In this document: positions 1-39,868 of the stretch, in pieces
Position numbering within the stretch: the first letter of the stretch is position 1
Layout: each line of letters starts with the position of its first letter
NCBI GenBank assembly: GCA_964035575.1
Contig: OZ037845.1
Coordinates: 372,001 to 436,000 of the forward strand
DNA from: Rhynchopus sp. YZ270_cl-10
Taxonomy: Eukaryota
Direction: 5' to 3'
Length of the DNA stretch: 64,000 nucleotides
The notes under the pieces: model-generated
Told to the model about the DNA's origin: nothing
What the model saw: only the letters and a program-made list of their open reading frames with translations
Database searches by the model: none
Translations under genes and position numbers: made by a program

Positions 1-124
1 CCATTTTCTTGTTTTCTTCCACAGATCGTTCTTTTTTTAGACCTCTCAAAAACAATTGAAACGGTACTCAAAATACCTAAATGCATCTGTTTTGCGATAG
101 CTTTTTTTCAAAAAGACACCCCTC

Positions 125-1613
125 TTAGAACCTGCTGATATCCCTTCCGAAGAGCCAGCCTTTGAACCAGTACATCTGTGGATTTTTTTTGAAAAGAATT
201 TTTTGTAAAAAAGCATACCGGAATCAAAATCTTGTTGACAAGCGAGACCTGCTTCCCCCAGTACGCAGTCCGCCACAAGAAGAACGCGGCAGGGCCTGTC
301 ACGGAGCCGATGTTCGTTTCGTCCCCTGCACGCCCAATGTGCGAGAAGTCTGCTACTGCACGCCATCCTCCGAGCATGGCCATGCTTCCCAGCGAGAGGT
401 AGGAGAAGGGTGGTGGGTCGATGGTGCCTTTGCCAAATTGAGGGCCTTCACCGGGTTTGGCACGGTTGAAGACTTTTGCGAGGTATTTTGCCTCTTGCAG
501 TGCAGCTTGGGCGATCGGCGGCAACGGCTGCGAATCGATCACCGCACAATCCCCGAAGGCAAACACATTCTCTTGTCCACGCACCTTCAAATGCAGATCC
601 GTGATGATCCTTCCTGTTGGCCCCTTTTCAAAGTCTAATCCATTTACGAATTTGATTGGCTGCAGTCCTGCTGACCACACCATCAGACCAAACGGCAAAA
701 ACGAGCCATCCGAGAGCAACGCATTGTTTCCTTCAACCGCGGTTACGGAGACCCCGGTTTTGACGTTGATGGAACGGTTGTCGAAGCGTTTGAGGACGTA
801 GGCGGATAGGCTTTTGTCGAAGGAGGATAAGATGCTTGGTCCTGCCTCCACCAAGGTAACAGAGGTGAGGGTTTTGAGATCTGGGTACCACCGTGCACAG
901 TCTTCAACGATGAAGTCGTAGAGCTCCCCAACGAATTCGCATGAGGTGGGACCACCACCAACCACCATGAAGGAGAGAAGCTGCCTTTGTTCTGCTTCGC
1001 TAACAGAAGGAATCGCGGCACGTTCAAAACACTCCAGAATCTTCTGACGAACCTGCCTCGCATGGTAGAGGTGCTTAAGAAAGCAGACATCGGTTCCTTC
1101 CCTTTCCATCACCCCAGGGGTATCAAATGTGCTAGTTTTCGATCCGCAGGTCACAACCAGGTAGTCATAAGGTACACGAAACTCCTCATGCTTAAAGATG
1201 TCTTTGCAAACAACCTCCCCAGTCGCTGCTAGCGAGGCAGCGTTTTGGGATGACAAGGAGACCGCTTTCCCTTGGTAGTATTTGAGGTTAGGGATGGTGC
1301 GGACCGGCTCTTGAATGGCACGGAACTCAAGCGTCCCCACCGCGCAAGAAGGAAGCAACGGTGTGAAGAGGAAATGGTTTGCCGGGGAAATGCAGCTCAC
1401 ATCATACCTCGTAGTGTCGATGCTCCGCAAAAAGTTGAACCCACCCCAACCAGAGCCAAGCACAACAATACGTTTTTTATCACTAAAAAGGGGCTGGATA
1501 TCGGCAGGTTTGAGGGACGGCAGGTCCACACCTGCCTTTGCGACGATAGAGTCAGAAGAAGAAGATGCGTATCGCAGTCCACATTTCAGAGGGGATCCCC
1601 GTATGTGCAGCAT
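125..1613 (-). CDS. NDH2: Type II (alternative, rotenone-insensitive) NADH:ubiquinone oxidoreductase, mitochondrial; 2 exons (1613-219, 175-125)
   Basis: Motifs IVVLGSGWGG, FLFTPLLPS, YDYLVVTCGS, VVGGGPTSCEF and VFAFGDCA. Removing a 43-nt GTATGC...CACAG intron (218-176) gives the canonical C-terminus MYWFKGWLFGRDISRF*. ATG at 1613 starts a presequence-like N-terminus (MLHIRGSPLKCGLRYAS). Confidence 0.93.
176..218 (-). other. 43-nt GT-AG spliceosomal intron in NDH2
   Basis: Minus strand reads CCG|GTATGC...CACAG|ATG; splicing restores the conserved NDH2 tail. Confidence 0.88.
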
Positions 1614-15579: not shown

Positions 15580-17341
15580 CGCGCAAAAAAGGAAGCTTGC
15601 GGAGGAGGGGGTGGGAGGACAAAAAAAAAAAAACACTCTGATGCTATACGCGGCTCTTTTGAGAGAGTTTGTTTTATTCCCTTTTTTTTTGAGCACCATG
15701 AATGCTTTTTTCTTTCGCAATCAGTATACCCTATCTTTACGGGATGAAGAGGAGTAAGGAACACACTACACAACTTTCTGATTGCAAGATACTCAAGACA
15801 ACACGGAAAGGGTATCTCCCTTTTAGAGGCAGTAAAAAAAAAAAGAGAAAAAAATTGGAAGATTGGCATCGCTTCTTTTTGCTTAACCTCTATGAATGGC
15901 TAAGAGGGAAAGAAAGTGGAGTTGCAAAACGTGTTTGGGACACAAGCAGGGTACTTTTTTTTTTGCAACCTGGTTGTATTAGTGCAGACACCCCGAGGAT
16001 GAACTCCACTATATTTTGTTGGTATTAGTCCGGTATGCTGTAGGATTTTTCGGAAAGAAAAAAAATAGTAGGATCGGTAGAAGCAGGGTTGTTTCATTGA
16101 TTGCAAAAAAACACACGGTGCTGTTAAGATCTTTGAGCAAGAAGGAAAGCTTGATGAATGTGCCTCTCGTGCACACACATCTTGAAACGGCGGCAAAAAT
16201 GAGTATATAGGCTGTGTCTACGGACATCAAAAAAGTAAGCAGAGAAAGAGAAAGGTTGTACGATGAAAGGGAATTTTTTTAAAAAAGTGAAGTAGAACTT
16301 AGAGATGCATCATGGGGGGAGCAGACTTCACTTAAAGCAAATTTTTTTTTACTTAAAAAAATCGTTTTCGCTTCGTTGAATAGCGCAACAGGAGGCGTTG
16401 TGTGTGCGATGATTTCTGTTTTTTTTTTTTTTTTCTCTCTTTTTTTTTTGATTTGAGTTTAGAAAAATGGAGTTATGTCAACTCCAAAAATACCTACAAT
16501 TTTATCTAAAAAGTTTAGAAGATGAACCTAAGCTTCGCTTAGTCAGATCGGTCGCTGTCGCACAGTCTCAACCGTATGGAATTGGTTTCATATCAGAAAA
16601 AGGTGGTAAAATGAACATAATTGTTGTCGTCACAAAAAAAATGATAAATCGATCCTGCGTATATCCAAGAACGTTCGTGAATATTGTTTTAAATTGTGTG
16701 TCGTTTGAGGATTCGAAAACAGCTTGGTGGACTATTCTTCCATGAGCAAAGGGAAAAATAAAAAAACAGCATTTTCAACATAAGGGATCAATAAAAAAAA
16801 TGGTCCCATCTTTCTGTGGTATGTTTTGCAAAGCGTAAAAAAAGGGGAACAAATTGAATAAAAATGCGCAGAGATTAAATCGCTTTTTTGCCATATGTGT
16901 AACTTACTTTGCTCTTCTTGACCCCGGGAAATACCAAATAATTGAGCTAGATTCCCAACATAACACAGAGCCGTACATTACATCCGCCATGGCATAACAT
17001 ACTCCCTCTCTTCGAACACAGTCGAAAACAAAGGTAGGGTTATAAAAGCAGATACACCCAAGAATATTTTGAGTTGCATCACATCATCTGACTTTTGTGA
17101 CATTTTTTTTTTGCAAATTTCTTCGCATAGTACTGTCAATAAAAGGTTGACTGAAAATACAACAGCCCTCTCGTGACAGCATGCTCGAATAAAAAAAGAG
17201 AAGTTTATACGATGAACTCTTGCACTCTCGCGCTTAAAGCCACCTTAAAACAATACAGCCTTTCTATACACAGATCAGACACAATGGTTAATTTATGGTT
17301 CAAAATCACCTTTTTTTTTCCTTTGATATTTTGTTGGATTA

Positions 17342-17440
17342 CCACCTGATTTTTATAGGCGCGTAAAGGCCCGTATAGGCCAAACCCCACCCATTTTTCC
17401 CAGCCTTTACGCACCTATACGCGGAGTAAAAATCGGGTGG
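17342..17440. repeat. Small foldback/MITE-like element
   Basis: Outer IR CCACCTGATTTTTA / TAAAAATCGGGTGG; inner IR TATAGGCGCGTAAAGGC / GCCTTTACGCACCTATA. Confidence 0.55.
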
Positions 17441-17756
17441 GATTAGTGTAAGCTGCCATTACACGACAGTCTTTTCACTGCAGAAACATTGGCAAATTCC
17501 ATTAACTCCCCAGAAAGATACCTCCGCAAAAAAAAAAAAATCCTTGGAAAGAGAGACAAAAAAATAAAAAAAAATTGACTTGAAAAAAAATACAGAGCCC
17601 CTTTTGTGACTGTGTACATGATAAAATATGGTGGTTTCTTTTTTTCTTCTTTCTTTCATTCATTCTTTCATCTTTTTAAAAGGAACAATGCAAAAAACCA
17701 TCCCTCAAAATCCACATCAAATACCCCCCATCCAACCTCATCCACATTCTTCGTTT

Positions 17757-20700
17757 TTACCTACCAATAGAAACGATGACTGTATCTGGTACTCTTCCGC
17801 CAAAGAGACAGCCTTTATGGAGGATTGAGAGGGATTCGCTGCCAACTGGGTAGACTGAACCTGCTATAGATATTTCTAATGTTGGGCGGGAGATGAGCGA
17901 GGTGAGGACACCACACATCCAGCTGCCTAGCGTCGCACCACGGGGGCTGACTGCAAGACAACGCTCAAGGGTGGCGGCGATTGTTGTAACATCGCGACCA
18001 CCCCCTGAAGTCAATCCCGCGCTTGCCTCTGGGGACATATCAGGTTTGAACAGTGTTTGCAGTACTTTTTCTATGCCTTCGACAGTGTCTTCCTTGATTT
18101 GTTGTAACTCGTACATCCATTCTTTTGAGGTTTCTGCAGTGGCCTTTGCTTCGAGGACAACTTCGGTTTGAATTGGGTGGTCCCTCCCGGCACAGCCGAC
18201 GACATCCAAAAACGGAGCGTGAATGAAAAATGAGGAAAGCGATTTGAAGCTCTGCAACGTTGTCGCGGAGACGACAACCGGCGCGCCGCATGCCTGCGCC
18301 ACCCTCGCTAGCGCATCTGCATCTTGGATAACCCCACCTAAAATTTGAAACGTCCTCCCCGCGGCCGGTCCAAGCAGACACACATTCGACATCGCAGAAC
18401 TCACACCACAGTGGTATCCTTCCGTCCCTAGAGACGATGCCACTTTTAATGCTTTAAAAATCGCGGCAGAAAAGGGGATACTTCCAACCGCCCCCCAGGT
18501 TGCAGTAAACCCCCCTTCTGTTACACGGTGTACACAACCGCGCATCGCTTCAACCTCTCTGTAGCAGTGCGCCAGCATTTCAGAGTGCATCCCTGCGCCT
18601 CCGTCGTACGTCGTGAGGGTCTCTTGGGAGAGGTGGGAGCGGACAACCAGAGCGACAACCTTGCGGTAACCATTCATTTCATTGCTAAGATCGAGCGGCG
18701 GGTGGGCGTGGGTGTATACTGTCGAGGAAAAATGCGTTGTAGATCCAGTCTCTGAGCGGTGGCCACCTTCCTCACATTCTACATACTGCCCAGGCAGGGT
18801 AGGGGTTGGGTGCGACACTGTCCCATCCCGCGACGAACCGTTTGAGTGTGACCTCACCCGCTTCTTCCTCCTCGCGCGCAGCTTCTGCACTTCATATACT
18901 GTCGGGTCTTCTGCGGCGAAGTCTGGTAGCATATCGTCCCCTTCATCGACCCCTTTCCTCTCTGTGAGTGCCTGCAGCACTGCAGAAGGGAGATACGGTT
19001 TGAAGGAAGACAGGTTTTTGAGGAGGTCGCGAAACGCAAGAATGAGGGATTGGGGGAGACCGGAGTCGCTTCGCATTTCTGCGGTGCAAAGAAGCCGTTC
19101 CGCTTCGTCAGTGTCGAGCTCTACGAGCGCTGCAGCGATGTCCTCCGCAAGCTGGATGTATTCCCGCACATCTTCCCCTTCCACATATCCAACGAAAAAC
19201 TGCTTCATTTGCTGCATTGCCGACGTCGAATGCGCGATGGTGAAAAACGCTGTCGTCGCATCACGCCCCAACGCATTCTCAATAGTGGCCACTCCACCAG
19301 GATGCCTCGCAGGGAAACTGCCCAGGTCATAGACCTTCCCTTCCAGGATAAGCCATGGGTCACGCAGGGTATTATGCGAAGCAACCTCCTGCAGAGAGTA
19401 GTACGGTGTATCAGGGGTGCAGCATTTCACCTTGTTGAGGGTGACCTCGCGGAGTACAGCGCTGCTTCGGCGTTTTGCGGCTTCAAGAACAACAACCAAA
19501 ATAGTTCCGGTAATGATAACAACATAAAAAAGAACGGTAACCTCAACACAATCAGATGCAGTCCGTTGAAGTGCTTTCATTCCGGTAGAGCATTGTATGG
19601 CAATGCAAATTAGGGTTGACAATCCACAAAATCTGTGGATAATTCCTCCTAATTTTGAGGCCCGTCCGACCCGAAGGATGCCAAGGATAATGGTAATACA
19701 CATTACCGCGAGGGTGATGTAGCCGGAGACTCTGTGGCCGGTTTTGTCAGCTTCGGCGCCGTGCGATGAGAGATCCTTTGCTGCGATGGTGATGCCTGCT
19801 GCCATGAAGGAAGTTCCTAAGAGCACGAATAGAATATGACACACAAACCCTGGACCATACGGGTACACAGAAGAGTTGGAAATGCGGAACACCGGCTTTG
19901 CGTAACGCTTTGCCAGCACCGCTAGCACAAAGCACGCCAACGCCACCACCATCAACACCGCATGCCGACGACGGTAGTCCTGCACTGCGCTCGCCTCCTC
20001 CGCATTTCCATCAATCAGGTTGATTGTCAGCCCCTTCGATTGTGTCGGAAGATGCTTCTGCAGAGACGTCGACACCAAATCTCTTGCAACAATAACAGGC
20101 AAACGGTGTGCATCAAATAAACCCGTCAAATTCATTTTCAACCGCACAATACGGTTTCCATTGGATTCTTCGAAGAAGAGGGGTCCTAGAAGAGCACCAC
20201 CTACCTCTGGAAGCGGAACCACCTCAGACATGGTGCGTCCGGTGATCATGTAGGCAGAGGTTCCTCCGTCGTGGGTGATGACAGCGTTGTTTGCAGGGGT
20301 CATTGTGTTCGGGTTTTCTGGGAAGGCGATTCCCAACCACCCGAGACCTACCGCATCAACCAATGCTATGTCGACCACCCCAGTGGTGCTTTCGTGTGTC
20401 CAATGAATGGACAGACCTGATAATCCTGTAGGCACCTCGCAGTTGTAGGTTTGGTGGTGGTCTCTCATAATGTTAGAAGGGTTGCAAAGGAAATGGGTGC
20501 GGTTTTTATCAGTGAAGGGGCAGTTGGAGTCCTCTGCTGAATATTGTGGAAGCCCGTTTTGGACTAATTCTGCCCAAGATTTGGTGTAGACCTCGAGAAA
20601 TGCGGTGTTGTTTTGTGCAAAGGTTTCTACCACAGCTTTGGTCTGCGCATTGTAGAGCATAGCGATATCTGACGCAAGCAGCATTAACGCTCCAGAGGAA

Positions 20701-21506
20701 AACACCACGTCACCATTTGACTCGTTTTCGTACCGCGTCCACGGCAGTTCCACCAAATTCCGGTAGTATTCGTTGTCGAACACATCGGGCGCTGCAGTAA
20801 ACCGCCCGGACGCTCCTGAGTTGTCATAATGCATGCCCCCTAGGGCATGACCTCCCATTGCCGCAACAAGCTTTTCGACAAACCCTTCCGAGTAGACCCC
20901 ATCCTCTGGGGTCGTATCCTCTGACGGAAAATACTTCGCAAATTTGAAGAAAATCGACTCCATGAGAGGCTCCATTGAGGCGGAGCTGTTGTCCGGGGCA
21001 ACAAACTTTGGGGGGAGGCGGTTAGGCGCGCAGCGTTCCTCTGCGGCAGCTTCATGAAAGTCACGGCGACCTGGTGTGAAGGGCAGTTCATTTGACCCAC
21101 GCTCTTCATGGATAATCGCCGCAACAATTTGTGTCATATCCGCAAAGCTGACAAATGGAAACCTCGCAACCAGCTTTGATACATAGAACAGCGCCTCTGA
21201 CAGCCCTGCATTGCTCGGATCGCTCCGTTCGGGGTCCATCCGGATGCATCCTCCGTTCGTTCCCCCAGAGGGTTTCACTGCTGAATTGAATGTCCCCGCG
21301 CTGTGCCACGCAAGCCGAACAAACGCTGCCGGCCCCACCACACCCCCTTCATGAAAATACCCATCCAACTCCGCCGTCACCCCCACTACCACCGGAGCAT
21401 ATTTCGCGATACATGCCACACGATGTGCCTCATTCGCTACCTCCTCACAGAGGAGCACCCCATGCGCAACGTTGATAAGCAGAAGCACTGTCGTCAAACG
21501 CAGCAT
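17757..21506 (-). CDS. Multidomain membrane protein: signal peptide + class I heme peroxidase (APX/CcP-like) + DOMON + cytochrome b561 + cytochrome b5 + degenerate class III nucleotide cyclase-like domain
   Basis: Signal peptide MLRLTTVLLLINVAHG (ATG 21506). Peroxidase: FVRLAWHSAGTF, GGTNGGCIR, SFADM, FTPGRRD, MGGHALG, FDNEYY, LLASD. DOMON: LSIHW, GWLGIAF, Met in NTMTP, His in QKHL. b561 histidines: RRHAVLM, CHILF, GHRVSG, IHRFCG. b5: YSLQEVASHN..WLILEGKVYDL..HPGG..GRDAT..AHS. Cyclase-like: FKPYLP, FTATWG, HCGVSS, EWMYEL. Confidence 0.88.
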   Translation of the reverse strand: MLRLTTVLLLINVAHGVLLCEEVANEAHRVACIAKYAPVVVGVTAELDGYFHEGGVVGPAAFVRLAWHSAGTFNSAVKPSGGTNGGCIRMDPERSDPSNAGLSEALFYVSKLVARFPFVSFADMTQIVAAIIHEERGSNELPFTPGRRDFHEAAAEERCAPNRLPPKFVAPDNSSASMEPLMESIFFKFAKYFPSEDTTPEDGVYSEGFVEKLVAAMGGHALGGMHYDNSGASGRFTAAPDVFDNEYYRNLVELPWTRYENESNGDVVFSSGALMLLASDIAMLYNAQTKAVVETFAQNNTAFLEVYTKSWAELVQNGLPQYSAEDSNCPFTDKNRTHFLCNPSNIMRDHHQTYNCEVPTGLSGLSIHWTHESTTGVVDIALVDAVGLGWLGIAFPENPNTMTPANNAVITHDGGTSAYMITGRTMSEVVPLPEVGGALLGPLFFEESNGNRIVRLKMNLTGLFDAHRLPVIVARDLVSTSLQKHLPTQSKGLTINLIDGNAEEASAVQDYRRRHAVLMVVALACFVLAVLAKRYAKPVFRISNSSVYPYGPGFVCHILFVLLGTSFMAAGITIAAKDLSSHGAEADKTGHRVSGYITLAVMCITIILGILRVGRASKLGGIIHRFCGLSTLICIAIQCSTGMKALQRTASDCVEVTVLFYVVIITGTILVVVLEAAKRRSSAVLREVTLNKVKCCTPDTPYYSLQEVASHNTLRDPWLILEGKVYDLGSFPARHPGGVATIENALGRDATTAFFTIAHSTSAMQQMKQFFVGYVEGEDVREYIQLAEDIAAALVELDTDEAERLLCTAEMRSDSGLPQSLILAFRDLLKNLSSFKPYLPSAVLQALTERKGVDEGDDMLPDFAAEDPTVYEVQKLRARRKKRVRSHSNGSSRDGTVSHPTPTLPGQYVECEEGGHRSETGSTTHFSSTVYTHAHPPLDLSNEMNGYRKVVALVVRSHLSQETLTTYDGGAGMHSEMLAHCYREVEAMRGCVHRVTEGGFTATWGAVGSIPFSAAIFKALKVASSLGTEGYHCGVSSAMSNVCLLGPAAGRTFQILGGVIQDADALARVAQACGAPVVVSATTLQSFKSLSSFFIHAPFLDVVGCAGRDHPIQTEVVLEAKATAETSKEWMYELQQIKEDTVEGIEKVLQTLFKPDMSPEASAGLTSGGGRDVTTIAATLERCLAVSPRGATLGSWMCGVLTSLISRPTLEISIAGSVYPVGSESLSILHKGCLFGGRVPDTVIVSIGR

Positions 21507-21958
21507 CGCAAGAAGTTGTCGTCCCAAGCCTTAAGAGAAGAGAGGCCAGAAGGGGAGGGGAGCAAGAGGGGGAGGGCAGGGAAAAGGAGTACTACAGAGC
21601 CTACTGCATATACGAAGCGAATTGAGGGGGGTGTCAAAGGGGGTGTTCGTCAAAACAGACGAAACGGAGGGGGGAGAGAAGAAGATGTTCTGTGAGGGGG
21701 GTGGTGGTGGTGGTGGTGGATGATGTGCGGAGAAAAGATTATTTGGATATTTATTTCGAGGTAGGTGTATCTACAAAAGGGGTTTCTAAAGGAGGGTCCT
21801 TTCGTTGGTTCGTGTTCGGAAAAAATGCACTCGAATCCTTTGGACAAAATGTCAGAGCCAAAAGGCTGTAGGGTGTTATGTCTGTTGGCATAGTAAGAAA
21901 AGGGTGTGGGCATAAATCAGACAGAAGAGGCTATGATGGCATAGGGTGTAGTAGGCAA

Positions 21959-22029
21959 AAAATCTCGCAATACTTAGCGGCCCTCTCGAGGTTTAGGAAG
22001 GAAAGCCACGGAGGTATTTGAAGCTGCTT
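21959..22029 (+). repeat. 71-bp direct repeat, left copy (pairs with 31019-31089)
   Basis: AAAATCTCGCAATACTTAGCGGCCCTCTCGAGG...GGTATTTGAAGCTGCTT; one mismatch between copies 9060 bp apart. Confidence 0.92.
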
Positions 22030-22203
22030 GTGTGGGTACTGTTGTCAGTAGGAAATGTGCGTCAGTTAGAGTCGAATGCTTTGAGTGGGAGAGAGGATAA
22101 GGGTGAGGTGCAAATGGAAAATGAAAAGGATTCGTTTTCTTTTGAGCATGACTTCTTCCAAGAGAAGGAAAGTGTGCAATTAAACGGTATGTGTGGCAGG
22201 TAC

Positions 22204-22289
22204 ATGCAAGAAAAGAATAGAACGTTGAAAAAGGTGACGAAAGCCTCTCGTGCTCAGTCACTTTCAACAGACGTGTGTCATAAAAAGAA
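22204..22289 (+). repeat. ~86-bp direct repeat flanking the theta GST (pairs with 23661-23747)
   Basis: ATGCAAGAAAAGAATAGAACGTT...AAAGCCTCTCGTGCTCAGTCACTTTCAACAGACG...TCATAAAAAGAA on both sides of the gene. Confidence 0.88.
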
Positions 22290-22688
22290 GGAAACAGGTA
22301 AAATAACCCTATGTCGAGTTAGTAGCATCGGTTAGCAGGGTGGGGAGGGGGAACGTGACAGTGATTTTTACATTGGGTGTCAACATCACGTTACTTTCCT
22401 TTCCGTTCCCACTGCTGATGCGCGAAGCAAACAAACAAACAAACAAACAAACATAGACGAACGGACCACACTTGAGGGCCACGCAGGTCTGATCAGAAGA
22501 GTGAAAAAAAGGTGTGTGAAAACGAAGACAAAAGTGGAGTTAGGGCGGAGATAGAAAGAGAGAGACATCTCAACGAACAGTTAGGATGGCTCTCGAAAGA
22601 GAAGCGTGGGATAATGAAATCCCCAACAAGACAAGAAAAGAGAAATAAATTGAAATTGCAGTCTGACTGAGGCCACCCTTTTACCTTC

Positions 22689-23384
22689 CTACTTCTGGGC
22701 AGCAGCAGCCTTCTTGGCCTCAATAGCAGCCTTGATTCCTGCTGCATTCTTCAACCACTCACCAGACTTCTGGAAGTTTGCACTGTAGCCCTCAACAGAC
22801 TTCAACCGCTCAATGTAGGCAAGGATGGACGGGTATCCCTCCAGCAGGTTCTTCCCAATTTTCCCCTGCACAAGGAGGAGCTGGTCCACCTCAGGTGCGA
22901 ACAGGAAGTCCGCAATCGAGATGTCGTCCCCAGCCACGAAGTTCTGCTTCGAGAGGAGGGTGTCGTACAGCTGCAGGGTCGGGGTGACCTTCTCGATGCC
23001 TGCCTTGAGCAGGGCGGGGAACTCCTCGGCAGACGCAAAGAAGCAGTGGGTCACAACCTCGCCGCTGATCTTGCGCACTCTGGCCAGGTTCCGTGCCACA
23101 AACTGCATCACCTTCGCCTGCTGCTTCTTGTCCTTCGGCACAATGGCGTGTCCCTCAGCAAGGTACTGCAGGATCGCAGCACTCTCCTCCAAGAAGAAGT
23201 CGCCCTCCTCGTACGACGGGATCTGGCCGGCAGGGAACTTCGCAACGTAGTCGGGGTGCTTCTGCTCCCCCTTCAGCATCTCAACCGTGCGCAGCTCAAC
23301 ATCAGACTTCGCGTAGGCAGCAAACCACGAAACAGAGCGGCAAGGCTGCGAGAAGTCGTGCGAGTTCAGGATTCCGGTCGGCAT
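22689..23384 (-). CDS. Glutathione S-transferase, theta-like (catalytic Ser)
   Basis: SQPCRSV, FPAGQIP, LEESAAILQYL, FVAGDDISIAD; strong GC3 codon bias. Confidence 0.92.
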   Translation of the reverse strand: MPTGILNSHDFSQPCRSVSWFAAYAKSDVELRTVEMLKGEQKHPDYVAKFPAGQIPSYEEGDFFLEESAAILQYLAEGHAIVPKDKKQQAKVMQFVARNLARVRKISGEVVTHCFFASAEEFPALLKAGIEKVTPTLQLYDTLLSKQNFVAGDDISIADFLFAPEVDQLLLVQGKIGKNLLEGYPSILAYIERLKSVEGYSANFQKSGEWLKNAAGIKAAIEAKKAAAAQK

Positions 23385-24855: not shown

Positions 24856-26322
24856 CTAGAGGCATGTCAGCGAGTCGAGACACGCAATCTTGGTGCATCC
24901 GAGAGCTCCGTCGTTGCAGGAGCAAGTGTTGCAGTCGTTGGTGCCCTCGTCTTTGCCTGACCAGCCGCTTGCAACAACAGTTCCGCACTGAAGGGAGCAA
25001 GTCTTCTGACCACATGGCGCCGAGTCACATCCGATCTTAGTGCATCCAAGGACTCCGTCAGTGCAAGTGCAGGTGTTGCAGTCGTTGGTTCCCTCGTCCT
25101 TGCCTGACCAGCCGCTTGCAACAACAGTTCCGCACTGAAGACTGCAAGTCTTCTGACCACATGGCGCCGAGTCACATCCGATCTTGGTGCATCCAAGGAC
25201 TCCGTCAGTGCAATGGCAGGTGTTGCAGTCGTTGGTTCCCTCGTCCTTGCCAGACCAGCCGCTTGCAACAACAGTTCCGCACTGAAGGGAGCAAGTCTTC
25301 TGACCACATGGTGCCGAGTCACATCCGATCTTAGTGCATCCAAGGACTCCGTCAGTGCAAGTGCAGGTGTTGCAGTCGTTGGTTCCCTCGTCCTTGCCAG
25401 ACCAGCCGCTTGCAACAACAGTTCCGCACTGAAGGGAGCAAGTCTTCTGACCACATGGCGCCGAGTCACATCCGATCTTGGTGCATCCAAGGACTCCGTC
25501 AGTGCAATGGCAGGTGTTGCAGTCGTTGCTGCCCTCGTCCTTGCCAGACCAGCCGCTTGCAACAACAGTTCCGCACTGAAGGGAGCAAGTCTTCTGACCA
25601 CATGGCGCCGAGTCACATCCGAGATTGGTGCATCCAAGGACTCCGTCAGTGCAAGTGCAGGTGTTGCAGTCGTTGGTTCCCTCGTCCTTGCCAGACCAGC
25701 CGCTTGCAACAACAGTTCCGCACTGAAGCTCACAGGACTTCTTTGTCGGGCAAGGCAGGTAAGGGCATGCGATCAGAGTGCAGATGAGGTGTCCGCTCTC
25801 AGTGCAGCTGCACGTGTTGCAGGCGTTGTCACCCTCGTCGTGTCCACCCCATCCGACAGGGACAACAGTGCCACATCCAAGAGTGCAGGTGGTGGGCTCA
25901 GGCTTCGGGCACTCCTTGCTGTTGGGGCAGCCCATCTTTGTGCACGCAAGACCTCCGTTGATGCAGTTGCACATGTTGCAGTCGTTGGTTCCCTCGTCGT
26001 TGCCCATCCATCCGTTTGCAACAACAGTTCCGCACTGCAGAGTGCATGTCTCCTGCTTGGGTTGGACACACAGCGGTGTGTGGAGCGTACCATCGCCCTC
26101 ACACAAAAGGTGGTCTTGACAGTGCTGGGCACTGCATGGACGTGCACCGCCACAGGTCTCACCCTCTGCACGCTTCGGCACACAGACAGAGTAGAACGAG
26201 AGGCAGTGGCCGTACCATTCAAGCGGACGGCACCACTCGCTTGGTGCGCAGTCGTCGTTGGCCCAGCACTGCTGAGCTGAGACAGCCGCAACAGCTGTGA
26301 GGAGCAGTGTCGTGCGTAGCAT
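24856..26322 (-). CDS. Secreted cysteine-rich protein with eight pacifastin-like (CNxCxCxxGxxxCTxxxC) repeats
   Basis: Signal peptide MLRTTLLLTAVAAVSA; N-terminal Cys-rich domain; 49-aa (147-nt) tandem units containing DCNTCTCTDGVLGCTKIGC. Confidence 0.8.
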   Translation of the reverse strand: MLRTTLLLTAVAAVSAQQCWANDDCAPSEWCRPLEWYGHCLSFYSVCVPKRAEGETCGGARPCSAQHCQDHLLCEGDGTLHTPLCVQPKQETCTLQCGTVVANGWMGNDEGTNDCNMCNCINGGLACTKMGCPNSKECPKPEPTTCTLGCGTVVPVGWGGHDEGDNACNTCSCTESGHLICTLIACPYLPCPTKKSCELQCGTVVASGWSGKDEGTNDCNTCTCTDGVLGCTNLGCDSAPCGQKTCSLQCGTVVASGWSGKDEGSNDCNTCHCTDGVLGCTKIGCDSAPCGQKTCSLQCGTVVASGWSGKDEGTNDCNTCTCTDGVLGCTKIGCDSAPCGQKTCSLQCGTVVASGWSGKDEGTNDCNTCHCTDGVLGCTKIGCDSAPCGQKTCSLQCGTVVASGWSGKDEGTNDCNTCTCTDGVLGCTKIGCDSAPCGQKTCSLQCGTVVASGWSGKDEGTNDCNTCSCNDGALGCTKIACLDSLTCL

Positions 26323-27583: not shown

Positions 27584-28228
27584 TCATGCCTTGAAGACAG
27601 TGCGAAGGCCCTCCGCAGACGCGTAGTACTCCTTCACCTTCGGGTGGTTTGCAACCACAGCCTTGTGTGCAGCAAGGTTCTTGAACGACACCAGTGCGTC
27701 CGACGGGATCCCGTCAAGGAACCCAGACACAAGGAACTGTACGTGTGTGAAAATCACCAGGTCTGCCACTGTCAGGGAGTCACCCACAGCGTACTTCTTC
27801 CCCGCAAGACGCGAGTCCAGGAAGACAAGCCACTTGTGCAGGTCCCCACCCTCAGCAATGGCAGTCGCACGGAGGGCCTTCTTCTCATCTTCATCCTTGA
27901 TCGCAAACGACTTGGCCAGAACTGTGAAGATCTCCGCTGTGTAGTCAATCGTCTCGTCCACACTCAGCGCCACACGTGCATCCTCGGGGTACAGACCCGC
28001 CAGCCTTGCAACGTAACGCAGGATTGCGCTGTTCTGTCCCACCACCTCCCCGTCCACGTGCAGAAGCGGCAGCTGCTGTGGGGCCACCTTCTGCTTCATA
28101 CCCGAGCCCCACGTCGGGAAGTCAATGTGCTCATCCTCAAGCACAAGGCCACCCACGTGTGCGGCAAGACGGATCGCCTCGGGCTTCGCGGGGACGCCGA
28201 AGTAGACAAGCTTCAGGGTCGGTGCCAT
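27584..28228 (-). CDS. Glutathione S-transferase, sigma-like (Tyr type), tandem copy 3
   Basis: MAPTLKLVYF, EAIRL, QLPLL, AILRYVAR, YAVGDSLTVAD. ATG at 28228 by alignment with the other two copies. Confidence 0.92.
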   Translation of the reverse strand: MAPTLKLVYFGVPAKPEAIRLAAHVGGLVLEDEHIDFPTWGSGMKQKVAPQQLPLLHVDGEVVGQNSAILRYVARLAGLYPEDARVALSVDETIDYTAEIFTVLAKSFAIKDEDEKKALRATAIAEGGDLHKWLVFLDSRLAGKKYAVGDSLTVADLVIFTHVQFLVSGFLDGIPSDALVSFKNLAAHKAVVANHPKVKEYYASAEGLRTVFKA

Positions 28229-28935
28229 TTTGTGTGGTGAGGGTGGTGTTGTGGTGTGTTGTTGAGAATCTGTGTGGGGTTGGTTTCGTTGGGTGAGAAA
28301 GGAAGGGCGAGAAGTACTTCCTCTCAAGACACAGGAGACTTGATGTGTTTCGAGGCAGAAGAGAGATCAGAGGTGTCCTAAGGTATTGTAAAGCCTATTC
28401 GGGCATCGCTCGTGGAGCTCCGACTGGGGCGGCATATCAGTGGTTTTCATCACTTCCGAAGCTGCAGTGGTCGCAAAGAAGTACTTGAGTATCAAAACAT
28501 GGGGGTTGGTGTCGTTTGTTTTGCACATCACTTTGTTCCATGGAGAAAAGTGTGGATAAACAATGTCGTTCGTAACTCTTGGTATCTTCCGCTTCCCCTT
28601 TCTGATGTCAAACACATCATAAGGGGGAAGGCAAAAGCCGCACCAAAAGGTAGAAGAAAAACCCAAATAAAGCAAAAGGAGTAAGCTGGCGAAGAGAAGA
28701 TGTGTTTTGGAAACACAGTAAAAAAAGAAAGCAAAGTTGTGAACGGTAATCATGCACCACAAGGTGTGGAGATCAAAGTTAGCTCAATGACTCCACACCA
28801 AGTGTTGCACAGGGTGCGAAGGAAGTGGACGGCACATTGCATCCCTCCTTCCTTTCCAAAAAATAATATCAAAGTCAAGTGAAAGTGAAAGTCGCAGACA
28901 TCACCAAAAGGCCCAAAGACACAAAACAAAACAGC

Positions 28936-29580
28936 TCATGCTTTGAAGACAGTGCGAAGGCCCTCCGCAGACGCGTAGTACTCCTTCACCTTCGGGTGGT
29001 TTGCAACCACAGCCTTGTGTGCAGCAAGGTTCTTGAACGACACCAGTGCGTCCGATGGGATGCCTTCAAAGAACCCAGACACAAGGAAGTGCACGGCTGT
29101 GAAGACCGACAGGTCTGCCACTGTCAGGGAGTCACCCACAGCGTACTTCTTCCCCGCAAGACGCGAGTCCAGGAAGACAAGCCACTTGTGCAGGTCCCCA
29201 CCCTCAGCAACAGCTGTCGCAGCGAATTCCTTCTTCTCCGCATCGTCCGTCAGCGCAAAGAACTTCCCCAGAACTGTGAAGAGCTCCCCTGCGTAGTCAA
29301 TCGTCTCGTCCACACTCAGCGCCACACGTGCATCCTCGGGGTACAGGTTCGTCAGTCTCCCGACGTAGCGCAGGATTGCGTTGCTCTGTCCCACCACCTC
29401 CCCGTCCACGTGCAGAAGCGGCAGCTGCTGTGGGGCCACCTTCGCCTTCAGACTCGCTCCCCACGTTGGGAAGTCAATGTGCTCATCCTCAAACGCAAGG
29501 CCACCGATGTGTGCGGCAAGACGGACTGCCTCAGGCTTCGTGGGGAAGGGGAAGTACACAAGCTTCAGGGTTGGTGCCAT
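28936..29580 (-). CDS. Glutathione S-transferase, sigma-like, tandem copy 2
   Basis: Paralogue of 27584-28228; VGQSNAILRY motif. Confidence 0.92.
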   Translation of the reverse strand: MAPTLKLVYFPFPTKPEAVRLAAHIGGLAFEDEHIDFPTWGASLKAKVAPQQLPLLHVDGEVVGQSNAILRYVGRLTNLYPEDARVALSVDETIDYAGELFTVLGKFFALTDDAEKKEFAATAVAEGGDLHKWLVFLDSRLAGKKYAVGDSLTVADLSVFTAVHFLVSGFFEGIPSDALVSFKNLAAHKAVVANHPKVKEYYASAEGLRTVFKA

Positions 29581-30271
29581 TTTGTGTGGTGAGGGTGGGT
29601 TGTTGTGTTGTCAAAAAGTCTGTGTGTGGTTTTGTTGGGGTTCCAAGAAGAAGAGGTGACGTTGCTTTGCACACGAATGCTAAAAGGGGATAGGGTGCGG
29701 TGAAGAGATTGCTTCTGCTACACAAAAAGAGAAACGTTTGTAACAGGTCACAAAAATAGTCAAATTGATAGTTCAAACGCCTCTGGGACGCAGGAACTAA
29801 GAAAAAAAAGAAAATCAAAACAAAACAAAAAGAGAGTAAGCAGGCGAGGTAAGTAGCTGTCACATGCAGGCATCTGGACGCGGTGTGTGACAAGAAAAGA
29901 AAATGTGGAGGACAATAGTTGAAAGCTGAAATGTCCCCCAAGAGCAACAGTCCGTTCGTATGTGCATGTATCATGCAATTGCAACATGAACGGGATCAGA
30001 GTAGCGGAAAAGAAAGAAACACACATCAGGGTCGGTGCACCACACAAAGGCAACACAAAGCCAAAGTGACAGAAATGATGCGCAGTGTGGGCGGAGAGTG
30101 TGGATGGCAGATATGTTGGACATCCCTTCCCCTTCTTGTGTCTTTCAACATCCGAACAACAGAAAACAAGCAAAAAAAAAAAAAAAAAAAAAAGTCGGAA
30201 TACGAAATGTGCTTCACAGGCACAGATCTAAAAAGTCAAAGCAAACGTAAACAACAAAGGCCACAATCAGT

Positions 30272-30916
30272 TCATGCCTTCAAACCAACACGGAGGCCCT
30301 CCGCAGACGCGTAGTACTCCTTGATCTTCGGCTGGTTCGCAACCACAGCCTTGTGTGCAGCAAGGTTCTTGAACGGCGCCAGAAGGGTCGATGGGATCGC
30401 TTCAAAGAACCCACACACAAGCGCGTGTGTCGACACGAAGACCACCAGGTCTGCAACAGTCAGGGAGTCACCCACGGCGTACTTCTTCCCCGCAAGACGC
30501 GAGTCCAGGAAGGAAAGCCACTTGTGGAAGTCCCCACCCTCAGCAGACGCAGTCACAAAGAACTCCTTCTTCTCCGCCTCGTCCTGGATCCCCATTCCCT
30601 TCCCCAGAACTGTGAAGAGCTCCCCTGCGTAGTCAATCGTCTCGTCCACACTCAGCGCCACACGTGCATCCTCGGGGTACAGACCCGCCAGCCTTGCAAC
30701 GTAACGCAGGATTGCGTTGCCCTGCCCGACCGTCTCCCCGTCCACGTGCAGAAGCGGCAGCTGCTGTGGTGCCACCTTCTGCTTCATACCTCCACCCCAC
30801 GTCGGGAAGTCAATGTGCTCATCCTCAAGCGCAAGGCCACCGATGTGTGCGGCAAGACGGGTCGCCTCAGGCTTTCCGGGGAAGGCGAAGTACACAAGCT
30901 TCAGGGTCGGTGCCAT
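30272..30916 (-). CDS. Glutathione S-transferase, sigma-like, tandem copy 1
   Basis: Paralogue of the two adjacent GSTs; unit spacing ~1.34 kb. Confidence 0.92.
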   Translation of the reverse strand: MAPTLKLVYFAFPGKPEATRLAAHIGGLALEDEHIDFPTWGGGMKQKVAPQQLPLLHVDGETVGQGNAILRYVARLAGLYPEDARVALSVDETIDYAGELFTVLGKGMGIQDEAEKKEFFVTASAEGGDFHKWLSFLDSRLAGKKYAVGDSLTVADLVVFVSTHALVCGFFEAIPSTLLAPFKNLAAHKAVVANQPKIKEYYASAEGLRVGLKA

Positions 30917-35426: not shown

Positions 35427-37112
35427 TCACTCTGAAAAACCAAAACTACCAACCTTCTCGTGAACACGATCCCAACACAGCGGGACCGTAAGAGTGCCGT
35501 CAGAGTCACTTTTGCGTCGAGAGAGCTCGTCTGCTGTGTGATTCTCTTCCGAGGCAATCCATTCTACACGGAGGTGGTGTGGTTGCACAAACGAAAAAAT
35601 ATAGCGTAAAAAGAAATTACCCAAGCGTGACTTAGAATGTCCGCGTTTGATGGCGCCCGCCAAACCCTTATTATCCACCAACAGCAACACCCCCTTCTCA
35701 GTTTTTTCTTCATGAAGCACCGCCCTTATGCCCTTTGCTGCCGCTTCCGCTTCAAGAAGAAAGATGTGTCTGTGTGTGGCCGCACAGTTCCACTGCCCCC
35801 AATCGGCTCTCGCTGTGGCGTCCTCCAGATGCTGCCACACTGCGCCCCACCCCGTCGTGCACGCATCCGTCCACACCACGGAGTCCCATTCTGTTGCAGG
35901 TTCCGGCAGGGAGAATCGACATCCTGGACGCACAAAGTCATCGACAAGACGCGTCACTTCCCGTTTCAGCTCACCGGGAATATCCACCACCGTGTCCCAG
36001 TCAAGCGCACCCTTTGCAATCAGACTAGACCAGCCGCTGAGGCAACCAAGTATCGCATCGTAATGGCACAACGGGGTACCTAACACGAACAGGGCTCGAA
36101 CCCCAATACCCAGCATCTGCCATATTGTCCGTACCGACATGGACTGTGCGGACGCAAACCTATCACACGTGTGCTCCACCTTCGCAATCCACAAGTCCGG
36201 AAAACAAAACACGCCCTGCTCCGGGTGCCAAATAATACCGATGTACTCCAGAGCGCAGACTGGCTTCAGAACTGACTTGCCAAAGTTCAGCTCCGCCCCG
36301 GCAAAACGAAAACGCTCCAAAATCTCTGTCAACAATGTCTGCACGGTTGCGGAAGTCTCCCCGAAAAGAAGTATATCATCCAGGTACACGACTGCCCTCA
36401 CCCCCAGCGCGGTCCCGATTAGCGCTTCAGCCGTGTTCTGCGCAATGTACGGTGCAACGGACCAACCCATAGGCACCCGAGTCCACCGGTACCAAGTCTG
36501 ACCTATGCGGAAACAGAAGAAGAGGGACACTTCGTCGTGGATGGGAAGTTGATGAAAAAATCCTTTGAGATCAATTTTTGCTACCCACTTAGCGCCTTTT
36601 CTTTTAAGCAGGTGGTATAGCTGAGGGGGTGATATGAGGTGGAACGTTGGAGGTTTAGGAGTGACTCTATTGATGGGTCGGCCGTCAATGATGGTTCTAT
36701 GAACGGTGGGGTCCGACTTAGGCACCGTGAATACCTTCACCACTCCGCGAGCTCGTTCGTTTCTCCCTACCTTTTTGCAGACCCCTGCCCTTACACACGC
36801 CGCAATGAAGGAGGGTGGGAGGTCGGATTTCGGGCCTGGCAACGGGATGCACCCACTCCGCACCGCATCAATCGCGTTGGGATCCGTCATCCAGTTCGTG
36901 AACGTCGTGTCCATGCCCGCGCCTTCTGCTAGTATTCGTATCCGCTCCACGCATATCGTCGTTCGGGGGAAAGAGTCGAGCTTTGCCTGTCGTGGAGGTG
37001 GTGTCATCATATCCGGGCTCAAACCAGTGCATTCTCCTGACTGTGGCGGGTTCCATTCCTCGATATTGGTGTGCGCCTCATCGCCGTAGTCCTCCTGGAG
37101 CCCCCGAATCAT
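35427..37112 (-). CDS. Reverse transcriptase-RNase H of the YR retrotransposon (frame stays open upstream to 38534)
   Basis: RT: VFTVPKSD, RTIIDGRPIN, KIDLKGFFHQL, RVPMGWSVAP, YLDD. RNase H: WTDAC, LLEAEA, LVDNK, ENHTADELSR. Confidence 0.9.
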   Translation of the reverse strand: MIRGLQEDYGDEAHTNIEEWNPPQSGECTGLSPDMMTPPPRQAKLDSFPRTTICVERIRILAEGAGMDTTFTNWMTDPNAIDAVRSGCIPLPGPKSDLPPSFIAACVRAGVCKKVGRNERARGVVKVFTVPKSDPTVHRTIIDGRPINRVTPKPPTFHLISPPQLYHLLKRKGAKWVAKIDLKGFFHQLPIHDEVSLFFCFRIGQTWYRWTRVPMGWSVAPYIAQNTAEALIGTALGVRAVVYLDDILLFGETSATVQTLLTEILERFRFAGAELNFGKSVLKPVCALEYIGIIWHPEQGVFCFPDLWIAKVEHTCDRFASAQSMSVRTIWQMLGIGVRALFVLGTPLCHYDAILGCLSGWSSLIAKGALDWDTVVDIPGELKREVTRLVDDFVRPGCRFSLPEPATEWDSVVWTDACTTGWGAVWQHLEDATARADWGQWNCAATHRHIFLLEAEAAAKGIRAVLHEEKTEKGVLLLVDNKGLAGAIKRGHSKSRLGNFFLRYIFSFVQPHHLRVEWIASEENHTADELSRRKSDSDGTLTVPLCWDRVHEKVGSFGFSE

Positions 37113-38671
37113 TGCAGCGAAGACAGCAGCTTCGCTTCCTCCCTCCGTCTCCCTAGTGTGTTCGTCCGCAGGTATCGCACCGTCTCCTGCTCGCTCGCAT
37201 GCCTCAACAGCTCCCGCAAGTCGCCCCTCTTCGCTCCTGTCTTCTCCACCTCCTGTATGGCCCCTCGTCTCATCGAGTGAAGCCACGAAGCCTGCGGGAA
37301 CACCTTCTTCAGCTCGCGCTTCAACCTCTCGTACAGGGCTGAGGAGCCCCCGAACACCAGCGCCTTCTCGTCGGCTACGCTGCGCATGAACCGTACGGCA
37401 ATCGCCGTAATGTTCCCCGGCGGTAGGTTGATCGGTGGCTTCCACGTCTTGCACCCCTTTTCCCGCGCAAAGAATTCTCCTCCTACTGTCTCCAAGTTTT
37501 GGGGGGTCTTGGACGGAAACTCTTTCCAGTCCAGTTTCGTGAGGTACCTCAAATCGGGTATCCGTGCACGAGAGACCCAAGCGATCGCCGCCAACGCTGC
37601 CGCCGGTCTGCATCCCTGATCCCACAACTTCTCCACAGCTGACTTCGCATCTGCCGCTGACATTGCCGGAGCTTGATTTGGACGGATCATCGTCCCCAGT
37701 CTGGCGAGTCCCTTCTTCGCGTCCAGCAGCATACGCGTCCGTACTCCTTTCACGCCCTCTCGATGAGCTCCGCGCACCAACGTCTCCATGTACTTCTTTG
37801 CCGTGCTGGGTGCTGTCGTATTTAACATGCTGTGGGCGTACTCTATTATCAGCTCGTCCGTCGGCCTTCCGCTGTGTTGCTTCGCCCTCCACTCCGAAAA
37901 ACGTGTGCAGATCCGGTCCTCCTCGCTCATCGTTTTTGGTGCCTTCGCAAATTGTGCTAGCTCGTCCCAGCGCACCAAGTGATGGATCAGCGATCCCAAC
38001 GACTTTCCGTCCCTCTCCGCAAACACCTTGTTCTCGATGGCTAGTTTTTTCTTTTTTGATAATTGTTTTCCAAGCGTTTCTGGCTCTAAGCAGGGCGGCG
38101 GAAAAACTCGAGGAGGGGTCACCGGAGTTTGCATCTCCTGGCTGCCCTCTGGGAGGCCCCCCGCCTTGTTGCTTTTTGCATTGAGAGAAAAGCCCACCGC
38201 TTGGTTCTCGTTTTGATTGAGAGAATTGAAATTGGTATGTTTGAGACATACGTCTCGACGGCCCACCGCCTTGTTGCTTTTTGCATTGAGAGAAAAGCCC
38301 ACCGCTTGGCTCTTGTTTTGATTGAGAGAATTGAAATTGGTTTGTTTGAGACATCCGTCTCGAAGGCCCACTGCCTTGTAGTTGTTCTTTGTGAGACATA
38401 TGTCTCGAAGGCCCACCGCCTTGTAGTTGTTCTTTGTGAGACATACGTCTCGAAGGCCCACTGCCTTGTAGTTGTTCTTTGTGAGACATACGTCTCGAAG
38501 GCCCACCGCCTTGTAGTTGTTCTTTGTGAGACATATGTCTCGAAGGCCCACCGCCTGGTAGTTCGTCTGGTTCAGGGGTGGCCTCGGGCAGGCTGCCGAG
38601 TTAGGAACCCTTCTCTCCCCCTTTCTTGCCTTTGCCCGCTCCTTTCGTGTTGAACGACGCCGACGGGTCAT
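37109..38671 (-). CDS. Tyrosine recombinase of the retrotransposon
   Basis: Catalytic set R (SRARIPDL), K (REKGCK), HxxR (HSMRR), H (LLRH), Y (TVRY); repeat-rich N-terminal extension. Confidence 0.85.
   Translation of the reverse strand: MTRRRRSTRKERAKARKGERRVPNSAACPRPPLNQTNYQAVGLRDICLTKNNYKAVGLRDVCLTKNNYKAVGLRDVCLTKNNYKAVGLRDICLTKNNYKAVGLRDGCLKQTNFNSLNQNKSQAVGFSLNAKSNKAVGRRDVCLKHTNFNSLNQNENQAVGFSLNAKSNKAGGLPEGSQEMQTPVTPPRVFPPPCLEPETLGKQLSKKKKLAIENKVFAERDGKSLGSLIHHLVRWDELAQFAKAPKTMSEEDRICTRFSEWRAKQHSGRPTDELIIEYAHSMLNTTAPSTAKKYMETLVRGAHREGVKGVRTRMLLDAKKGLARLGTMIRPNQAPAMSAADAKSAVEKLWDQGCRPAAALAAIAWVSRARIPDLRYLTKLDWKEFPSKTPQNLETVGGEFFAREKGCKTWKPPINLPPGNITAIAVRFMRSVADEKALVFGGSSALYERLKRELKKVFPQASWLHSMRRGAIQEVEKTGAKRGDLRELLRHASEQETVRYLRTNTLGRRREEAKLLSSLQ
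38160..38556. repeat. Internal tandem repeats (~4.5 x 45 nt, then ~2 x 105 nt) in the YR/RT overlap
   Basis: Unit GAGACATA(T/C)GTCTCGAAGGCCCAC(C/T)GCCTTGTAGTTGTTCTTTGT, containing the palindrome GAGACATATGTCTC. Confidence 0.9.
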
Positions 38672-38687
38672 AACGCATGCGTTTGTT

Positions 38688-39653
38688 CTATTGCTGGCGT
38701 CCTCCTCCTCCTTGGTAGGATCGCTTGCCCTTGTGCGTGTTGTTCGCCGCCACGGCTGCCAGCATAGCCTGCCTGCGTGTCGGGGTGGTCGTAGACCCTA
38801 CTATGCCGCGCATCCGGAAAGCCTTAGCAGCCTCCACTCCCAGGGTAAACCTGTAGTGGAAGAAGAGCAGGTTGTCCAAGGAGTCACCGAGGATATCAAC
38901 CATACTCCTCCCCTTGAGGATCTTCTGGATCAGTGTCCAGGAAGCGTGCGCGGCATCCTTCGCGTCACCGTCCCTCGTCGGGATGTACCCCCGGAGGTTC
39001 GCGAGCAAGTCACCCTGCTGGATGCGATCCAACTCCTGCCACCTTTTGTGGTTCAGGGTCACATCGTCCGCATCCACACCCGCATCATCCGCATCATCCC
39101 CGATGTCGCTGCCTCCGCCAAAGCTCTGCGCATCCAACGTGTCGCCGGCTGCTGGGCCCCCGCCTCCCGCACTGCCGGGCAGTAGCCCCCCGTCTGCCCG
39201 CGGAGCGAAAGTGAACCGCTTCCTCGACACTTCGGCAGCGACAGCTTCCTCCTCCGTGTCGTGGGCCGCCTGTGGAGAGGTTACATCGGGTGACGAGGGA
39301 AAAGCCTCTCTGTTCTCGTCCGCCAGCAACCCCTCAAACGCCTCTTCTCCCACTGCACGCCGCACTGCCGTGAGGAACAGCGCCAGCCTCCGCGGAGGCG
39401 TGTTCGCCCACTTCTCAGGCTCCGATCGGGTCACCACGCCGATTACCTCGCGCAGGGCCTCTACAGTCAAGGACTCTACCTCTGAAGAAGAGATAGCCTC
39501 CAGGGTGTCGCACACGAACTTGCCCTGAAGACTCACCGAACCCAATTTTTCCTTCACGATGTTTGGTGCCTCCTTGCACATCCCTCCCAACACGTTGCTG
39601 ACCTTAAACCAGAACATTCTGGAAGGTGCATTTTTGAACTCGCTCATGTCCAT
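38688..39653 (-). CDS. ORF1 (gag-like) of the YR retrotransposon
   Basis: Called by position only: first ORF, ATG 39653 just inside the terminal direct repeat, basic/Gly-rich C-terminus. No diagnostic motif recognised. Confidence 0.65.
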   Translation of the reverse strand: MDMSEFKNAPSRMFWFKVSNVLGGMCKEAPNIVKEKLGSVSLQGKFVCDTLEAISSSEVESLTVEALREVIGVVTRSEPEKWANTPPRRLALFLTAVRRAVGEEAFEGLLADENREAFPSSPDVTSPQAAHDTEEEAVAAEVSRKRFTFAPRADGGLLPGSAGGGGPAAGDTLDAQSFGGGSDIGDDADDAGVDADDVTLNHKRWQELDRIQQGDLLANLRGYIPTRDGDAKDAAHASWTLIQKILKGRSMVDILGDSLDNLLFFHYRFTLGVEAAKAFRMRGIVGSTTTPTRRQAMLAAVAANNTHKGKRSYQGGGGRQQ

Positions 39654-39868
39654 TTTTTGTGTCGTACGAGGGAAGGAAAAGAGACCACCCGAAAACAGAG
39701 ATTTTTCCTGATGAAGGTGAGTGGTGTTTTCCTTCGCCTTTCCAGCCTTTGCAATGCAAAGTGGTAAAAAAACAAAAAACATGAATGGGGCAAAGCTTTT
39801 ATTTTTATTCATACTAAACACCAGATCTCCCCATGTCGCAGCAAAGCTGCTTTAAACAAGTTAACTGG

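Follow-up and report, generated by a model that had tools for sequence, protein, structure and literature searches.

Plant CYBDOM proteins, bacterial CyaC and DUOX are partial precedents for the protein described here. The CYBDOM proteins of Arabidopsis (HYP1/CRR) combine an outer DOMON domain with Met/His haem ligands and a cytochrome b561 with two His pairs in a predicted three-haem path, and PMC10784544 describes for HYP1 an outward current in which cytosolic ascorbate supplies the electrons and b561 passes them to acceptors outside the cell. In the CyaC protein of Sinorhizobium meliloti and in class IIIb cyclases of the cytochrome-b/ferredoxin kind, a di-haem membrane anchor is followed by a small redox domain in the cytosol and then by a class III cyclase (PMC10463352, PMC4821796), and the activity of CyaC is reported to track the redox state of its membrane haems (PMC10463352). 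In DUOX, a peroxidase-like domain outside the cell is attached to a trans-membrane electron carrier with two haems (PMC3591440). Each shares part of its plan with P0001, the 1249-residue product of an open reading frame (ORF) in a 64,000-nucleotide stretch of Rhynchopus sp. YZ270_cl-10 (contig OZ037845.1 of assembly GCA_964035575.1, positions 372,001 to 436,000; hereafter the window).

The architecture to which P0001 belongs exists, is conserved and seems not to have been described before: a CYBDOM wire joined to a cap that is an enzyme of reactive oxygen species (ROS) and to a foot of cytochrome b5 and cyclase, P0001 being the form with a dead cyclase. By Pfam, profile and fold searches, the domain order is a signal-like N-terminus, a class I haem peroxidase, DOMON, a five-helix b561, b5, a coupling helix and a dead class III cyclase fold. 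Relative to the CYBDOM plan, P0001 is therefore extended at its N-terminus by the class I peroxidase and, behind b561, by the cytosolic b5, the coupling helix and the tail with the cyclase fold. The anchor of CyaC, as described in the same sources, is of the succinate-dehydrogenase type with six helices, and CyaC has a 2Fe-2S centre, quinone input and no ectodomain, whereas P0001 has a five-helix b561, b5, an external ROS enzyme and a dead cyclase. The features of the gene, in order of transcription, are as follows (aa, amino acid positions; CcP, cytochrome c peroxidase).

21530..21593, minus strand: likely spliced-leader acceptor, a polypyrimidine tract (88% C/T over 60 nt) with an AG 23 nt before the ATG
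17757..21506, minus strand: whole ORF (P0001), a single uninterrupted frame of 1249 aa with zero internal stops
21459..21506, minus strand: predicted signal peptide, a hydrophobic N-terminus, aa 1-16 (hydropathy alone)
20541..21458, minus strand: class I haem peroxidase domain, aa 17-322 (Pfam, alignment to CcP, fold search)
20007..20447, minus strand: DOMON, aa 354-500, with candidate haem ligands M402 and H485 (ESM Atlas, core alignment, fold search)
19467..19988, minus strand: cytochrome b561 membrane domain, aa 507-680, five helices (hydropathy, model, alignment, profile, fold search)
19167..19406, minus strand: cytochrome b5, aa 701-780, with H735 and H759, predicted cytosolic (Pfam, alignment, fold search)
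18957..19166, minus strand: conserved coupling helices ending F-K-P-Y-L-P, aa 781-850, resembling a cyclase transducer element (81% identity to the homologue P0002)
18687..18956, minus strand: poorly conserved linker, aa 851-940, site of the catalytic cyclase domain in relatives (38% identity to P0002)
18087..18686, minus strand: class III cyclase-fold domain without catalytic residues, with an EWMY motif, aa 941-1140 (74% identity to P0002)
17757..18086, minus strand: C-terminal tail and stop, aa 1141-1249, no family assigned

Short-read unitigs from runs X1 and X2 span 17386-21150 and 21126-21986/21988 with 0 mismatches, 0 gaps and flat depth, and the ORF is therefore genuine and contains no assembly join. 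Logan contigs from four runs were aligned to 16500-22800, and within the ORF no run shows any difference; these contigs, probably derived from DNA and perhaps in part from the source sample itself, rule out a mis-join and are silent on expression. The idea that the fusion arose in assembly or gene calling is refuted at the DNA level, and we give it almost no credence: no direct transcript of the P0001 gene was seen, but the short-read contigs over the ORF are identical, a full-length homologue is 58% identical and transcript-derived homologues have the same domain order. The preliminary description of this DNA, made from the sequence, had proposed one intronless ORF with the order given above, the coupling helix excepted, and the single frame, the short-read contigs and the domain searches uphold it. 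Its suggested check for a single transcript was borne out in homologues, since single Trinity transcripts or ORFs encode seven peroxidase-wire proteins from Artemidia, Namystynia and an Hpha-prefixed set. Within the peroxidase clade of P0001 itself, the sole transcript is P0025 from Rhynchopus humris, and the other six full-length members are genomic predictions; P0025 runs through peroxidase, DOMON and b561, after which homology is lost and the sequence reads as off-frame translation, possibly because the contig is frameshifted.

Pfam detected a peroxidase at aa 52-299 (E 4e-23), Cyt-b5 at aa 705-775 (E 2e-19) and, below cut-off, b561 at aa 515-644 (E 0.064), with no DOMON, HAMP or cyclase match in P0001. 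An AlphaFold model of aa 17-850, built on a 36-sequence alignment (mean predicted local distance difference test score, pLDDT, 88.8; predicted template modelling score, pTM, 0.55), was used for a structure search against 48,161 chains. The peroxidase part matched cytochrome c peroxidase with a Z score of 31.7 (root mean square deviation, rmsd, 2.3; 265 residues aligned), and Foldseek with the 834-aa model gave, among the matches listed, only peroxidases. In the alignment to CcP, from which the CcP residue numbers are taken, R64/W67/H68, N99, H220 and D280 of P0001 pair with R48/W51/H52, N82, H175 and D235. The domain accordingly has the fold, the distal Arg/Trp/His and the proximal His/Asp of a class I haem peroxidase, which it shares with CcP, ascorbate peroxidase (APX), kinetoplastid APX-CcP and the "Euglenozoa-specific HPX" as these are described in PMC9358470 and PMC7237987; it differs from them in lacking both Trp191 and Arg172, in its conserved Cys pairs and in its fusion to a multi-pass wire. 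The Cys pairs (C20/C32 and C87/C159) and an N-glycan motif at N299 lie downstream of the signal region. Full distal and proximal residue sets are retained in seven of the eight peroxidases of this clade. The nearest relatives of the peroxidase outside the family, P0092 and P0095, occur in fusion with domains of the PA14, G8 and CEMIP beta-helix types. Diplonemid secretory eHPX proteins are reported in PMC7237987 as being of unknown function, several of them C-truncated and with at most one membrane helix in the eHPX rows, and some of them may be fragments of the P0001 family.

The DOMON and b561 assignment was obtained from the ESM Atlas (score 0.91, 200 shared features), and a 7-sequence profile matched Arabidopsis b561 4O6Y (E 3e-6). 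In the structure search, the DOMON part matched the DOMON of dopamine beta-hydroxylase (Z 15.0, rmsd 2.6, 139 aligned) and the cytochrome of cellobiose dehydrogenase (Z 11.8, rmsd 3.2, 148 aligned), the b561 part matched 4O6Y (Z 14.3, rmsd 3.3, 162 aligned) and the b5 part matched cytochrome b5 (Z 14.6, rmsd 1.0, 80 aligned). A core alignment of 30 sequences, from which the truncated P0018 and P0156 were left out and in which identity to the query is mostly 22-38%, has the candidate DOMON ligands M402 and H485 conserved in 28/29 and 29/30 sequences, respectively, the b561 ligands H515, H557, H591 and H624 in 30/30, on four consecutive helices, and the b5 ligands H735 (the HPGG His) and H759 in 28/28 and 29/29. 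By comparison with HYP1, H515/H591 would hold the outer b561 haem and H557/H624 the inner. Predicted ligands for five haems are thus all present in P0001 and near-invariant across the 30 homologues, in line with the up to five haem sites put forward earlier, and membrane, DOMON and b5 ligands are retained even by members that have no cyclase. The model contains five long helices at approximately aa 507-535, 552-578, 591-612, 618-649 and 654-692, and basic residues are concentrated in loops 1 and 3 and behind helix 5. Because five helices, also predicted by hydropathy, are combined with this loop distribution and a cleaved signal peptide, the peroxidase and DOMON would lie outside the cell or in a lumen and b5 and everything after it in the cytosol, so that the proposed placement of b5 across the membrane from the peroxidase stands.

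A profile of seven tails, P0001 included, matches CyaB (E 6e-12), which points to a class III cyclase fold. The ESM Atlas scored the tail 0.92, yet with only 145 shared features, and profiles alone detected the cyclase: pairwise BLASTP of the tail against the homologue P0003 gave no match and phmmer against the PDB gave no cyclase. Of the two cyclase domains of relatives, the tail aligns with the degenerate second (HHalign 93.7-97.9%), not with the catalytic first. Between P0001 and P0002, identity is 81% in the coupling helix and 74% in the dead cyclase, against 35-39% in the linkers. The F-K-P-Y-L-P end of the helices is similar to the cyclase transducer element motif FGRY (PMC5995499), and in relatives the catalytic cyclase begins 27-43 residues past it. 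Such a first cyclase domain occurs in 21 members and is of the trypanosome GRESAG type (E 1e-38); all six catalytic residues (D-K-D-D-N-R) are present in 16 of the 21, among them five peroxidase-tipped proteins and three that carry reductase-like caps. This domain, which P0001 does not have, resembles those of the trypanosomatid receptor adenylate cyclases (GRESAG4). HemAC-Lm is a documented case of a euglenozoan cyclase under haem control; GRESAG4 and HemAC-Lm have, as described, one or zero membrane helices and no electron-transfer chain (PMC4534343). Judged by its residues, P0001 itself cannot make cyclic AMP (cAMP), and the cAMP response to H2O2 once anticipated is not expected from P0001 alone, because its only cyclase domain is dead. 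Elsewhere in the window (54166-57396, minus strand), a 1076-aa two-helix receptor-like ORF has an EWMY-type dead cyclase domain, which suggests that other receptors in this genome use pseudo-cyclases too.

To place P0001 in a family, aa 17-869 were compared with 1.84 billion representatives; the best 150 of 8680 matches were used, and family counts are therefore lower bounds. A fixed b561-b5-helix core, usually with DOMON before it, is present in 31 of 172 proteins. What precedes the core varies: 14 members, including the query, have a peroxidase (one has four peroxidases and one is truncated), seven have desulfoferrodoxin-like (superoxide-reductase-like) repeats, 4-10 in each, two have extra DOMONs, five have one DOMON only and three are truncated. 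The four His and one Cys that make up the superoxide reductase site (PMC3116461) are retained in 19 of 39 reductase-like repeats, in five of the six proteins examined, and approximately 30 residues separate the peroxidase cap from DOMON in each of the 14 members that have one. Among 30 relatives, 18 have diplonemid names or prefixes, 10 are ENA records, one is from Prymnesium and one from JGI; Diplonemidae and Hemistasiidae are both represented, which marks the family, and by inference the source organism, as diplonemid, and Diplonema papillatum contributes KAJ9456028.1 and KAJ9472251.1. The relatives are labeled at NCBI only as "Adenylate cyclase" or "Cytochrome b5." In the core tree, each of the two types of peroxidase-bearing protein has a starred clade to itself (8 and 7 rows), and six changes are required for the cyclase-less state; the two types fall apart in the peroxidase tree as well. 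A homologue search restricted to lengths of 2352-5000 aa returned three unrelated proteins only, and a metagenome scan of 25/64 parts gave 80 loci; at E 1e-3, DOMON, b561, b5, cyclase and reductase repeats were absent from all of them. A peroxidase-profile match in P0039 (aa 99-387) was rejected as spurious, since it overlaps the DOMONs of that protein and catalytic residues are absent. In P0031 (Prymnesium parvum KAL1499200.1) and P0075, P0168 and P0169 (JGI), class I peroxidase and DOMON domains alternate, which is a separate peroxidase-DOMON pairing; multicopper oxidase and b561 parts occur in P0031 too, the gene model of which may be merged, and P0075 lacks b561 and has a single membrane helix.

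That the wire feeds the cap is argued chiefly from this comparison: peroxidase and superoxide reductase are unrelated, both need electrons, and they share the slot beside DOMON. The presence of reductase-like repeats in the same slot of seven relatives, and of an intact cyclase behind b5 in many, goes beyond the case made by the preliminary description. We propose, with confidence evenly divided for and against, that P0001 is a trans-membrane wire that feeds cytosolic electrons to an outward-facing peroxidase and whose b5 redox state is reported to the cyclase module. Ascorbate, or NAD(P)H via b5 reductase, would reduce b5 and the inner b561 haem in the cytosol; the two b561 haems would pass electrons across the membrane to the DOMON haem, as for plant HYP1; and DOMON electrons would reduce compounds I and II of the peroxidase, in this clade probably through the haem edge or a small mediator because the Trp191 relay is absent. 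Peroxide turnover would then oxidise the chain and shift the helix behind b5, upon which paralogues with an intact cyclase would alter cAMP output and P0001 would work via a partner cyclase or another binding protein. At typical potentials, transfer from b5 through b561 and DOMON to compound I/II would run downhill. A broader, more tentative and doubtful reading is that diplonemid receptor cyclases sense external H2O2 or superoxide by consuming it: interchangeable ROS-reducing caps would draw electrons by way of DOMON, b561 and b5, and oxidation of b5 would switch the cyclase, with P0001 as a dead regulatory subunit; the signal would then cross the membrane as electrons rather than as a change of shape.

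Several observations weigh against the wire-to-peroxidase proposal. The CcP Trp191 relay position is F236 in P0001 and Phe in 8/8 of its peroxidase clade, and the position of APX Arg172 is N229 (aligned to CcP N184), Arg being found there in 0/8. Tryptophan-to-phenylalanine substitution at the Trp191 position is reported to kill cytochrome c oxidation by CcP and TcAPx-CcP (PMC13689830, PMC9358470). With both the relay and the ascorbate arginine missing, direct wiring to the P0001 peroxidase is unproven. For the self-recharging scavenger proposed earlier, the haem ligands and topology of the electron path hold, but the two textbook recharging routes are gone. On the cytosolic side, the HYP1 ascorbate-site arginine (R307, seven residues before the fourth b561 His) is Arg in 21/30 relatives, though Ser617, with Lys618 adjoining, in P0001. 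Caps persist without catalysis, since P0021 of the eight-protein clade has lost its distal His and 20/39 reductase-like repeats lack some ligand, and at least four members have DOMON directly behind the signal region with no enzyme cap. Repeated independent recruitment of peroxidases is not established, because one origin of the two types was not rejected by the approximately unbiased (AU) test (p 0.086, 40/64 rows kept). The model's pTM leaves domain packing unsettled, and aa 941-1140 of P0001, which has no first cyclase domain, contain neither of the metal-binding Asp residues nor the transition-state Asn and Arg.

The loss of the protein-to-haem relay and the occurrence of capless and multi-DOMON members also suit a different function, in which the core is a HYP1-like ferric or cupric reductase, the cap an independent ROS guard at the place of Fe(II) formation that uses small substrates and draws no electrons from the DOMON haem, and b5 and the cyclase reporters of flux or metal supply. 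Metal reduction is, moreover, the sole CYBDOM activity measured in the available text of PMC10784544. We nevertheless consider this unlikely, given that a superoxide reductase requires a dedicated donor, for which the adjoining wire would be the only obvious candidate outside the cell, and that the spacing of peroxidase cap and DOMON is constant in every peroxidase member. The degenerate caps, for their part, fit a low-flux sensor, whose cap would bind an oxidant, gas or ligand and whose haems, as redox or conformational switches, would control a dimeric cyclase in the manner of CyaC or HemAC-Lm, leaving P0001 as a decoy or inhibitory subunit. Strong constraint on the coupling helix and dead cyclase and the recurrence of the cyclase-less state would agree with such a sensor; however, cyclase-less members keep their membrane, DOMON and b5 ligands, as a working conduit predicts, and all but one of the clade's peroxidases have complete distal and proximal sets, so that we regard the sensor as quite unlikely.

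With Phe in place of the proximal Trp, the domain is suited to the oxidation of small substrates, as in class II/III peroxidases, which would be compatible with a DUOX analogue: superoxide or H2O2, made from O2 by the wire, would serve the peroxidase to oxidise or cross-link external substrates. Against this, b561 haem potentials are generally too high for the reduction of O2 to superoxide, and an FAD/NADPH domain is found in 0/31 members; we judge the analogy improbable as an account of function. The layout is DUOX-like in that a peroxidase-like ectodomain sits on a membrane wire with two haems, but DUOX, as described in PMC3591440, makes ROS and has an animal-type peroxidase, a ferric reductase domain, EF hands and FAD/NADPH domains, with no DOMON, b5 or cyclase. 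Pfam ferric reductase, FAD/NADPH and EF-hand domains were detected neither in P0001 nor in its relatives.

A full-text literature search, the coverage of which mostly excludes subscription journals, found no paper on this architecture, consistent with the preliminary description, which knew of none. The main text of the D. papillatum genome paper mentions no cyclase, DOMON or b561 (PMC10161547), and the entries found in its supplement, a single DOMON-b561 orthogroup and orthogroups of adenylate cyclase, are names without further detail. The Euglena cyclase architectures presented in the available portion of PMC6366073 are without DOMON or b561.

A glutathione S-transferase (GST) gene lies immediately upstream of the P0001 gene (22689-23384), three tandem GST genes are found at 27584-30916 (minus strand) and a type II NADH dehydrogenase at window positions 108-1613; as genomes of this kind are polycistronic, this neighbourhood may be due to chance. 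A secreted protein with eight pacifastin-like cysteine repeats is encoded at 24856-26322 (minus strand). Downstream of the P0001 gene, a short imperfect inverted repeat at 17340-17440, where contig depth is hundreds-fold above single-copy with many loose ends, is likely a high-copy element resembling a miniature inverted-repeat transposable element. Three overlapping ORFs at 35427-39812 (minus strand) encode a reverse transcriptase (Pfam RVT_1), a 520-aa protein that is tyrosine recombinase-like by eye and has no Pfam match, and a 374-aa protein, a layout that suggests a DIRS/Ngaro-type retrotransposon.

If the proposal is correct, this family would provide a eukaryotic receptor in which turnover of an extracellular enzyme is sensed inside the cell as electron drain, with swappable peroxide and superoxide caps, and it would place superoxide-reductase-like domains on surface proteins of an aerobic protist. 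It would also supply an electron donor for the secreted diplonemid peroxidases of unknown function and would mean that CYBDOM wires can serve acceptors other than metal ions. D. papillatum, called the model diplonemid, has members of the family, and the natural variants with and without a cap or a cyclase allow these ideas to be tested directly.

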